Source: Escherichia phage Rac-SA53
Sequence record: KU052037.1
Strand: one strand, 5' to 3'
Length of the DNA: 52,291 nucleotides
Part shown: in pieces, positions 18,001 through 21,000 of the stretch
How the letters are laid out: each line of letters opens with the position of its first letter
How positions within the stretch are numbered: the stretch's first letter is position 1
Program-made: the position numbers

Positions 18001-21000
18001 CTTCACAGTTTACGAACCTGAGGAGTAAGAGACTCGGCGGGGAGAAATCCCTGTCACATCTGATGTGTCAGGCATCCTCAATGCACCCGATTTTGCCCCT
18101 CTCGATATTTTATTGTTAATTAATAAATATTATTAAACAGAATGTACAATGTCATGATGTTCTCATTGTTGGTTTTTATATCACGCGCAGTTTACCTTGT
18201 ATTCTTAATTTATATATTTTATATATTGTTATGTTTTCTTGGTTATTGCCTCATGTGAAATATTAATTAGAATCCTTTGGGCTTGATTTGCGCGCAGGGA
18301 GAAGATGGATGGCCCCCATAAAGGGGAACGCTATTTACCTGGAAGGATTCTAATGAAGAGTTTTGATAAATTGCGTGAAGCTTTGAGTGAAAATGGACTC
18401 TATGCGGTGCGTATCGAAAATGGAGAAATAATTTACACAACTGTAATCCCGGAAGATCATATAATTTTATCTGTTGAAGCTTTTATCGAATACATTGAAA
18501 GGATTGGTTTTAAGGTCATACGGGATTGAGTTATAATCTATAAGCCAGCCTGAACAACTGGCAACCTACAGCGCCATTGGAGAATGCAATGGCGCATATA
18601 CAACTGGTCAAACAAACATCTTCTGGATTACTTCTCCCGGCGACGCCGGAGAGTTGTGATTTCCTGCATCAAATAAAGATAGGTGAGTGGATACACGCTG
18701 ATTTTAAGCGCGTTCGTAACTACGCATTTCACAAGCGTTTTTTCAAACTCCTGCAACTCGGATTCGATTACTGGACTCCGGTCGGTGGGGCGATCACGTC
18801 CCGCGAACGAAAACTGGTGTCCGGTTTCGTTGATTATCTGTGTGACTCAGTCGGCAGGGAACATACGCCAGCCCTGAGTGATGCCGCAGAACAATATCTG
18901 AATACCATTGCGATACACAGAACCTGCGATACGGCATTGCTAAAGTCATTTGATGCTTTCCGTGAATGGGTAACTATTGAGGCCGGATTTTATACCGAGC
19001 ATTTTTATCCGGACGGTAACCGTGGGCGCAGAGCGAAATCCATCGCTTTTGCGAACATGGACGATACCGAGTTTCAGCAGGTTTATAAATCCGTACTGAA
19101 TGTGCTTTGGAACTGGATTCTGTTCCGAAAATTTTCCTCTCCTGATGAAGTCGAAAATGTGGCCGCACAGCTACTGGAGTTTGCGTAATGGTGAATTTAC
19201 GTAAAGCGGCAAAAGGTCAGATGTGTACGGTCAGAATACCTGGCTACTGCAATCACAATCCCGAAACGTCTGTGTTTGCGCACTACAGATTGGCTGGAAC
19301 GTGTGGAATGGCGATAAAGCCGCACGATATGCAGGCTGCGATTGCCTGTAGTTCATGTCACGATCTAATCGATGGGCGGATAAAAACCAGCGATTACACC
19401 AGAGAAGAAATGCGCCTGATGCACGCAGAAGGTGTTTTTCGCATGCAAGAAACCTGGAGAAAAGAGGGATATTTATGATTTACCCAATAAATATCGGAAA
19501 AAACGGGGAACATCTCCGTCTCGCCACACTGGAAAGTGTCTGGATTCAGGGGAAACTGCGTATGTGGGGGCGCTGGTCGTACATCGGTGGGAGAAAAATT
19601 GGGAGTATGTTTAACAGGTTGCTTGTATCACACACAATAACGAAATCTGCTATCAATGAAGCACTGCGCAGTATGAAAAAATCGGGTATTGAGAAAGCTC
19701 AACTTGAAGCATTTCTGCTGGAAATTATTAATGGAAGGCAAAAGAGCTGGTTGGTGCACTGTTCTGATACAGAGGCTTTGCTGATCGATAAGGTTATTGG
19801 TGAGGTACTTGGCAAACATCCAGGATTAATTTTTATCTTACGGCAGAGATATGAGGGGCACGGTATGAGTAAGCGCAAAATGGCTACGCGTTTAAACGAA
19901 ATATATCCTGAATGGTGCTTCAGTACTTGTGAAAAGAGAATCTCTAATTGGTTGGCTATTGCTGAATTTGCCTTATATACACCTATGCGTAATGCCTTTG
20001 CACAAAATTAAGCTTGATTCTTTACGCAAGAAACGGTATCTTTAGTTTAAGATGCCGTTCTTATACGCATCTCATCGCAATAAAGATTGCGAACAAAAAA
20101 CCACCAAGAGTGTTTTTTGTATTCAAACTCTTCAAATAAAAATAAGCTCTATCCTTTAATTTCATCAATACACATATACCACTTATAAAATTCTTGACTT
20201 ATAAACTCGGTGTATAATTTTACTTGCTCTTATGTTTGGGCTCTTCTTTAGGGGGTCGGATTGAACTATACCATCTAGGATAATGTATTTCTTTAGCGAA
20301 AAATAATTTATATATGGTGTGAGTTTCGGTTGTGTTGATTTTCAGATCTGGAGCTTATTAAGCAGGGGGGTATTGATATTGGTGTAGGTTAGCAGTATGA
20401 GAGTGTAATTGCTGTAGTGATTTTTAATAATAGCTTGGATATGTTTTAATTGTGAGGTGTATAAAATGAAGTTGAAGTCGTTAATTGCAGTGTTATTTGT
20501 GTCATTGCTTTCTATAAATGCTAATGCCAATGCAGACGTTAGTTCTGATGTTAGTTCTGATGCTGCAGGTGCGGGAGACACTGACTGGACCGGCGGGAAT
20601 AAAAATGGTATGTACTCTGATGTGATAATTAAAGATATTCATACCGGCGTTGTTGACCTAAAACCTTATTTTTGTGTTGAGGTTGCTAAGACTGGACTTG
20701 ATTTCAAAGCATGTCTGGTTCGCGGATACTCTGTCTGGTCCGGTGCTTATGACACATTTTATAATCAAGCAATGTATTATTATTCTACAGGGCAAAAAAT
20801 TAGATTGTATTATGATTCTCGCACATGGTCTCATGCCGGTTTTGCACAAATAACACAAAATGCGATAGCTGGGTTTTCTACATGTTCTTCGGATGATTAT
20901 TGCTTCGGTCCGGCAAGGAAACCGTCAGGTAGTTAAAATAGTATGGTGATCAAATGAATATTATAGTTGGCCTGTTATTGATTTTATTTTCTTTTGATTC

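Follow-up and report, generated by a model that had tools for sequence, protein, structure and literature searches.

A short-form Rem-family gene, a putative antirepressor, and the AT-rich tract preceding its predicted promoter in Escherichia phage Rac-SA53

Small antirepressors and the locus under study

The systems closest to the locus analyzed here, a 58-amino-acid (aa) gene and the AT-rich DNA preceding it in Escherichia phage Rac-SA53 (sequence record KU052037.1, whose whole stretch of 52,291 nucleotides is called the window), are the antirepressors of the Gifsy prophages and the Rem protein of the Qin prophage of Escherichia coli K-12. The Gifsy repressors are short, lack a cleavage site and are inactivated when bound by small antirepressors, which are encoded in a LexA-controlled operon with the order dinI, antirepressor gene and irsA; DicA and RacR were named in the same repressor group (Lemire et al., PLoS Genet 2011, PMC3121763). 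Rem was found by transitive PSI-BLAST from the Gifsy antirepressor GfoA, and ectopic K-12 Rem produced a 165-fold derepression of the DicA-controlled dicBp of Qin and a DicB/DicF-dependent filamentation, the Rem-inducing condition being stated to be unknown (Ragunathan et al., J Bacteriol 2023, PMC10448788). The window gene, placed at 18353..18529, is by homology a short form of the known Rem family, and in this sense an already described kind of gene, which may well act as the antirepressor of its own prophage. Coordinates are window positions throughout, and features lie on the plus strand unless otherwise stated.

Compared with K-12 Rem, the window protein belongs to the same Pfam and PHROG family, aligns over the full length and is encoded in a slot downstream of hokD, as in K-12. 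The two genes also share the promoter type (TTGAAG-18-TAGAAT in K-12), the leader GCGCGCAGGGA...GGAAGGATTCT (GCGCGCAGGGAGAAG...GGAAGGATTCT) and the Shine-Dalgarno (SD) sequence, and both prophages carry a short helix-turn-helix (HTH) repressor without a cleavage domain. The differences concern the length of the protein, which has 58 aa instead of 83 and is devoid of the 24-28 aa that are inserted behind the beta hairpin in K-12 Rem; the repressor, which has 153 aa in the window and is 24% identical to DicA, with the C-terminal segment alone in common; and the upstream DNA, which is an AT-rich tract in the window and a terminator plus spacer in K-12. With the Gifsy antirepressors GfoA, GfhA and GftA, the locus shares a small protein encoded outside the immunity region, directly 5′ of irsA/DUF1367 and before Q, as well as a putative target among short repressors without the Ala-Gly cleavage site and with an LLxLFxxLPxxEK-type C-terminal segment. 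However, the unit opens with hok in the window and with dinI in Gifsy, and no LexA box (CTGT-N8-ACAG with at most one mismatch) was found within 12764-19759, so that SOS control is not indicated.

A short form of the Rem family

The preliminary description of this DNA reported a 58-aa open reading frame (ORF) with a GGAAGGA ribosome binding site (RBS) and called for a homology search and for evidence of conservation. Both the ORF and its RBS were confirmed. The ORF consists of 58 codons and a stop, and the SD GGAAGGA at 18341-18347 is found 5 nt 5′ of its ATG. An alternative in-frame ATG at 18305 would yield a protein of 74 aa, and either start is used by RefSeq, depending on the genome; in Salmonella, Citrobacter, Enterobacter and Serratia, where homologues have 54-59 aa, their start coincides with that of the 58-aa form. 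The homology search placed the protein in the Rem family, with a match to phrog_340 (E 2.4e-15, residues 6-57) and with PF27490 ('Rem') in the precomputed record on an identical protein (P0001) and in those of about 100 relatives. The PF27490 assignment consists of precomputed database records, the model being newer than the Pfam copy scanned, and this is also why the Pfam scan returned only noise; with the 58-aa and the 74-aa protein as queries, Pfam and NCBIfam returned DsbC_N and PASTA matches of this kind and nothing else. Moreover, a tblastn search of the phage collection retrieved one record, pointing to 'rem', and the scan of genome contigs revealed three loci. Among the 14 matches of an all-against-all HMMER comparison, P0024, P0025 and P0029 were dismissed as compositional, being repetitive, long non-homologues.

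The relation to the characterized member is supported by the hhalign comparison of K-12 Rem (b1561, 83 aa) with the family profile, which covers the full length (Prob 96.9, E 1.3e-10) and locates the insertion of 24-28 aa of K-12 Rem, relative to the short form, after the predicted beta hairpin; BLASTP to an 86-aa Rem likewise gave 59% identity within the first 29 aa. Relatives were found in Escherichia, Shigella, Salmonella, Citrobacter, Enterobacter, Serratia and Hafnia. No variation is seen at residues D35, H36, S40 and R50 and almost none at G15, G24, P33, E46 and G52, and the AlphaFold2 model of the 58-aa protein presented a predicted local distance difference test (pLDDT) value of 80. 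When the window gene is compared with relatives that are 56-71% identical to it, the ratio of nonsynonymous to synonymous substitution rates (dN/dS) is 0.12-0.31, which demonstrates that the gene is real and under selection; the ORF is therefore conserved, with relatives in several genera. The short form (57-59 aa) is commoner than the long one, a 57-aa relative (P0041) being indexed in 1972 assembly-collection blocks.

Several variants of the family were observed alongside. Two E. coli proteins (P0015 and P0016) are variants of the window protein with an in-frame deletion of 9 aa (LYAVRIENG missing), and one of them is named 'NYN domain-containing protein' in one source, probably a mislabel. 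Proteins of 117-120 aa, found in Hafnia alvei (L018, 3001-3354) and as P0027, P0065 and P0085, contain two tandem Rem domains. The small Hafnia element with the tandem form also carries an integrase, an AlpA-like HTH protein, ORF6N/ANT, DUF4222, an AAA_25 primase-like protein and a capsid gene; it resembles a phage satellite and might supply an antirepressor that derepresses its helper. In four O157- or Rac-type loci (L002 3220-3297; L003 3066-3143; L048 14063-14143; L050 12067-12144), an intact 57-aa short-form Rem was called a pseudogene fragment of 78-81 nt ('missing C-terminus') by RefSeq and its Prokaryotic Genome Annotation Pipeline, likely because the long form served as the evidence protein, in what looks like a recurring annotation artefact.

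A conserved slot between hok and Q

The order hok, Rem, DUF1367 (irsA), YbcO nuclease and Q recurs in E. coli, Salmonella and Citrobacter (about 35 loci), and in the Serratia and Enterobacter loci the slot between the early genes and Q is kept with variant neighbors. In fact, the gene occupies the same slot in all related prophages examined, with hok or another early-region gene on its left. In the window, as had been described earlier from the position of hok and the nin-region genes, the hok/sok locus lies on the left, and the right-hand neighbors are a DUF1367/irsA homologue (18589-19188; labelled NinB/Orf in PHROG), the YbcO nuclease (19188-19478) and the Q-type antiterminator DUF1133 (19475-20011), all three assigned by Pfam and RefSeq. 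The order in Gifsy-2 is dinI, GftA (73 aa) and STM1020, and because the DUF1367 protein of the window is 55% identical to STM1020 (irsA), the 58-aa gene occupies the slot of the Gifsy antirepressor.

No terminator-like site was found between 18529 and 18589. The intergenic sequence 18530-18588 (..TAAGCCAGCCTGAACAACTGGCAACCTACAGCGCCATTGGAGA..), which includes a 5-bp hairpin as well as the SD for the gene that follows, is near-identical across lineages whose coding sequences (CDS) have diverged. Given the missing terminator, the conserved intergenic sequence and the overlap of the downstream genes, the transcription unit would probably continue to Q, with the 58-aa gene at the head of an operon comprising irsA/DUF1367, ybcO and Q.

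The putative target and the proposed mechanism

The prophage repressor, a protein of 153 aa encoded at 9056..9517 on the minus strand, is the putative target. It has HTH_3 as its only Pfam domain and no S24 peptidase domain, and its C-terminal LLxLFxxLPxSEK segment is common to DicA and Gifsy-2 GtgR; in BLASTP, its last 40-50 residues (ELLNLFEILPASEKAKLL...) matched DicA with 38% identity over 42 aa and GtgR with 38% over 26 aa, the overall identity to DicA being 24%. A RacR-like nature of this repressor was considered and rejected, as it is 18% identical to K-12 RacR.

In the proposed mechanism, the gene would be transcribed from its own σ70 promoter (–35 at 18246, –10 at 18268) into an RNA opening with a leader of about 70 nt, and the 58-aa protein, once made, would bind the short, non-cleavable HTH repressor, as expected by homology, and take it off its operators. 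The early operons would then be derepressed, ydaS/ydaT on one side and kilR-recET on the other, and prophage induction would start. The co-variation of the two partners is consistent with this proposal. The short form of Rem is accompanied by a 153-aa repressor in the window, CAU16175, IGC_EcoliInv_1.1 and BCE049, 98-100% identical among the four, and the long form by a DicA-type repressor of 135 aa, 60-100% identical to DicA, in K-12 Qin, FDAARGOS_943 and O157:H7 7386WT, so that Rem form and repressor type co-vary in 7/7 prophages examined. Such a pattern fits a pairing of repressor and antirepressor, and could equally reflect two prophage backbones.

Several points weigh against an antirepressor role. 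The deletion of rem in K-12 altered none of the induction phenotypes tested (PMC10448788). Short Rems with no more than about 67-70% identity to that of the window also occur together with a repressor 100% identical to the window's, and the co-variation may thus reflect shared backbones rather than specificity. The short form lacks the segment of 24-28 aa present in the sole characterized member, and this segment could be needed for repressor binding. Homology to the biochemically characterized Gifsy antirepressors could not be demonstrated from sequence, as the hhalign comparison of the Rem family with GftA gave E values of 0.097 (single sequence) and 0.057 (profile-profile), with a plausible register (NG...DD..S...E) and a non-significant score. 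The activity of the promoter is predicted, and neither a LexA box nor another recognizable operator lies near it to link expression to an inducing signal. Because homology to GftA was not demonstrable and the relatives of GftA presented no PF27490 match, the gene was filed under Rem and not under the Gifsy family. With these points taken into account, it is still judged reasonably probable that the short-form Rem is the antirepressor of its own Rac-type prophage, produced from the canonical slot with its own promoter and leader.

The predicted promoter and its conserved leader

The preliminary description had supposed a promoter belonging to the gene itself and proposed promoter prediction as a check. 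A σ70 promoter is predicted at 18246..18273, with a –35 element TTGCCT (18246-18251), a 16-nt spacer and a –10 element TAGAAT (18268-18273), and a consensus scan picks the same two hexamers, whose conservation is seen on comparison of lineages; transcription would start near 18280. In the alignment of upstream regions, homology between lineages starts exactly at the TAGAAT hexamer. The DNA further upstream belongs to at least seven unrelated modules, namely the AT-rich tract of the window, a terminator plus spacer (K-12, L002 and L011), the 3′ end of a doc/Fic-toxin gene (L003) and four others, and the arrangement TTGnnn-16/18-TA(G/A)AAT is retained in all seven, 15-16 nt 5′ of the conserved leader. 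The maintenance of this arrangement next to unrelated upstream modules makes a σ70 promoter of the gene's own, at the 3′ edge of the AT-rich tract, a well-supported prediction.

The leader (CTTGATTTGCGCGCAGGGAGAAGATGGATGGCCCCC..GGGGAACGCTATTTACCTGGAAGGATTCTA; 18282..18352) has a normal GC content, is common to K-12 rem and is nearly invariant across the Rem family in E. coli and Salmonella. It presents five GGA motifs (one of them in the SD), a CCCC-loop-GGGG hairpin and the SD GGAAGGA. Between the window and other lineages the leader is 77-86% identical, versus 47-62% for the third codon positions of the adjacent CDS, and this conservation acts at the nucleotide level and is non-coding, because the hairpin loop carries frameshifting indels; it is thus not due to an N-terminal extension of the protein. 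The Rfam scan identified sok only, the leader matching no family, and the consensus RNA structure was weak (RNAalifold –10 kcal/mol with one compensatory pair; single-sequence z –0.77), the sequences offering too little variation. The GGA motifs recall the consensus of leaders bound by CsrA. The literature on CsrA and rem, on PF27490 and on RacR and antirepressors yielded nothing further.

Within the conserved leader, 18305-18353 includes an invariant strong SD and ATG (GGGAGAAGAGGG-ATGG), and from the second ATG of the window (18309) a 14-codon upstream ORF runs to a TAATG that overlaps the start of rem. A leader peptide translated from the invariant SD and ATG was rejected, as its frame and length vary among lineages (3, 8, 14-15 or 22 codons, or an in-frame fusion). 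The Rem genes of Serratia and Enterobacter (L013 ~2870-2910; L014 ~2858-2897) are without the E. coli leader and share another upstream motif, GATCGA..TGG..ATTGATCTA..GCCTATTAGAC, located some 100-140 nt ahead of the start; this motif, in which GATC sites occur, may serve as an operator or promoter.

The AT-rich tract and a candidate fold-back arm

The 200 bp or so of highly AT-rich DNA reported before the small ORF were confirmed. Positions 18090-18289 have 26% GC (A52 C25 G27 T96) versus 47% for the whole window, the lowest value among all 200-nt windows of the 52 kb (percentile 0.008%), and 100-nt windows within 18100-18299 have 27-29%. The tract itself (18090..18262) is T-rich on the plus strand and holds the –35 element in its 3′ end. 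It does precede the gene, as the preliminary description stated, but does not abut the RBS, from which it is separated by the leader of about 70 nt and normal GC.

On its left, the tract adjoins the conserved 3′ end of the hok transcript (18029..18089). Homology to other hok loci ends at about 18089, and 459 of the 475 matching genomes align to query positions 1-61 only, which correspond to this hok 3′ region. In K-12-type loci, the hok 3′ end is followed by an intrinsic terminator, CCCGCTTCGGCGGGTTTTT, that is missing in the window, and other lineages have a terminator plus spacer in place of the tract. The tract is present in 16/5426 complete E. coli genomes, in one copy each and with 97-100% identity, the sources being mostly ruminants, meat or Shiga toxin-producing E. 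coli (STEC), and in all ten genomes inspected it is flanked by hok and this same Rem variant. Its origin could not be traced in the phage or plasmid collections, where it showed no similarity. Variable sites among the ten genomes amount to 6.4% in the tract, 2.2% in promoter plus leader and 0.6% in the gene, which makes the tract the least constrained part. Judged from these comparisons, the tract is a spacer, rare and quick to change, which took the place of the hok terminator region and supplies the predicted –35 element and AT-rich upstream DNA; any role of the tract itself is an inference. In E. coli STEC367 (L006 1100-2500), an insertion sequence, IS421 of the IS4 family, has entered the 3′ untranslated region of hok immediately before the tract and duplicated about 12 nt of its target (GGGAGAAATCCC).

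Among the inverted repeats of the region, the strongest joins 18258-18277 to 18343-18362. Its 5′ arm (18258..18277) overlaps the –10 element, and its 3′ arm (18343-18362), complementary to it at 17/20 positions, covers the SD and AUG. The arms would pair only in transcripts coming from upstream, since the 5′ arm precedes the predicted transcription start. The modelled fold of the read-through RNA has –38.8 kcal/mol (z –2.15) and sequesters the SD and AUG, and the computed accessibility from SD to AUG, which is 0.44 in the promoter-initiated RNA, is reduced to 0.10 in the read-through RNA, a value below those of all 30 controls with a shuffled upstream part. The drop is smaller in five lineages and there is none in three, including K-12. 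These computations make the repeat a candidate for fold-back inhibition of read-through translation, which would be meaningful in this lineage, as it has lost the hok terminator. Such inhibition is a known property of the IS10 transposase mRNA. The likeness to IS10 lies in a 5′ arm placed upstream of the gene's own transcription start and complementary to SD plus AUG, so that only RNA started externally would be blocked; the difference is that the case of the window is computational and strong in the lineage of the window only.

Promoter, GGA-rich leader and, in this lineage, the fold-back arm might together form an as yet undescribed switch, independent of SOS, that times Rem-type antirepressors, with a post-transcriptional regulator of the host, such as CsrA or a small RNA, as its sensor, a speculative suggestion that is rather doubtful as it stands. 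If true, it would also time the prophage and the downstream AB5 toxin genes, which would come under the same switch because the unit appears to run into Q.

Alternative explanations

The preliminary description saw in the locus a small moron with its own promoter. The second half of this statement agrees with the conservation of the promoter next to seven upstream modules, and further features would suit a moron understood as an autonomous accessory cassette, expressed in the lysogen for the benefit of the host and unrelated to phage regulation: the preceding DNA is strongly AT-rich and rare (16/5426 genomes), and the region from the replication genes to Q is a known cargo site, with hok and defence-like genes just upstream in the window. 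However, what is sporadic is the AT-rich tract and not the gene, which recurs at this position in the prophages of several genera, and tract and gene differ in history; moreover, the gene has no terminator behind it, conservation extends over the intergenic region up to irsA, and the characterized Rem acts on the repressor of its own prophage. The moron label is not supported, because the terminator is missing, the slot is conserved and the role appears regulatory, and an autonomous cassette is considered quite unlikely. A role for the short form as a Rem-fold protein that is no antirepressor but, for instance, assists or regulates the recombination and nuclease genes DUF1367/irsA and YbcO would account for the constant place of the short Rem directly 5′ of DUF1367 or a RecA-dependent nuclease, for the conservation of the sequence in between, for the absence of the K-12 Rem insertion and for the pairing of the same repressor with diverged short Rems. 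It is nevertheless rather unlikely, as the full-length alignment to K-12 Rem shares the core motifs and the Rem form follows the repressor type in all seven prophages; besides, the Gifsy antirepressor gene also lies directly 5′ of irsA, whose deletion was without effect on Gifsy induction (PMC3121763).

The AT-rich tract could instead be functional in itself, either by encoding a peptide like a type I toxin or as a silencer of the rem promoter bound by H-NS. It is the most AT-rich DNA of the window, directly adjoins the rem promoter and contains a very hydrophobic ORF of 38 aa (18142..18258; MYNVMMFSLLVFISRAVYLVFLIYIFYILLCFLGYCLM) that is open in 10/10 genomes and has 6/7 of its variable sites at codon position 3. 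However, 4/7 of the changes alter the amino acid, and its variability of 6.0% is on a par with that of the tract overall (6.4%); the ORF is without an SD, has no family match and was never called in a collection of 15 billion proteins, an open frame of 38 codons is common enough in T-rich DNA, and other lineages dispense wholly with the tract. The 38-aa ORF is thus probably not a gene, and a function of the tract of either kind is unlikely. A HicA-like small toxin or RNA-binding protein is suggested by the name given by JGI to the relative P0055, 'predicted RNA binding protein YcfA (HicA-like)', by a similar order of secondary structure (helix, beta hairpin, helix) and by weak matches to the HicA structure 4c26 in PDB (E 1) and to PF07927 in 2/29 members (best E 0.084). 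A HicA-like fold was rejected for the 58-aa protein, which itself has no PF07927 match and no HicB-like neighbor, and this explanation is very improbable. The antirepressor role therefore remains the preferred explanation of the gene.

The surrounding prophage

The window is 100% identical to the corresponding stretch of E. coli SA53-3, where, according to the RefSeq annotation of that identical genome, it belongs to a Rac-type lambdoid prophage integrated beside ttcA. The left part presents intR, xisR, ralR, recT, recE and kilR, followed by a divergent immunity region with the 153-aa HTH protein, YdaS and YdaT; the middle holds the replication genes, IS1 and two defence-like genes, and the right part hok, the 58-aa gene, DUF1367, DUF1364, Q, eplBA (a subtilase-like AB5 toxin) and the lysis genes. 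To the left of the AT-rich tract lies the type I toxin-antitoxin locus hok/sok (17703..18028), in which the Rfam model RF01794 (sok) matches 17703-17878 with 122 bits, the hok CDS spans 17873-18028 (PF01848 HOK_GEF, E 3.6e-22; phrog_251) and an overlapping mok-like ORF starts at 17816.

Between IS1 and hok (15680-17315), the two genes annotated as 'sce7726 family' and 'beta family' match the PADLOC models 'cll' (E 2.4e-28) and PD-Lambda-2_C (E 1.4e-41), and this pair is a probable anti-phage defence cargo of the prophage early region. The slot after Q is occupied in the window by the eplBA AB5 toxin genes and, further on, by an 'enterotoxin A family protein' (20466-21697 and 23488 onward); in sibling prophages with the same AT-rich tract and Rem variant (L005-L007, 4826 onward), a 'scabin-related ADP-ribosyltransferase' is found in the post-Q slot instead.

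Significance

The window gene is otherwise an ordinary member of a described family, and its interest lies in what such genes do and in how they are recognized. Prophages whose repressors do not cleave themselves depend on small antirepressors for their induction. The short form is widespread and is labelled 'hypothetical' or pseudogene by RefSeq, so that its correct naming improves the annotation of prophages. Moreover, the conserved promoter and leader constitute a concrete handle for finding the signal that induces Rem, and, because the gene lies upstream of Q and eplBA, its control may extend to the induction of a toxin-encoding phage.

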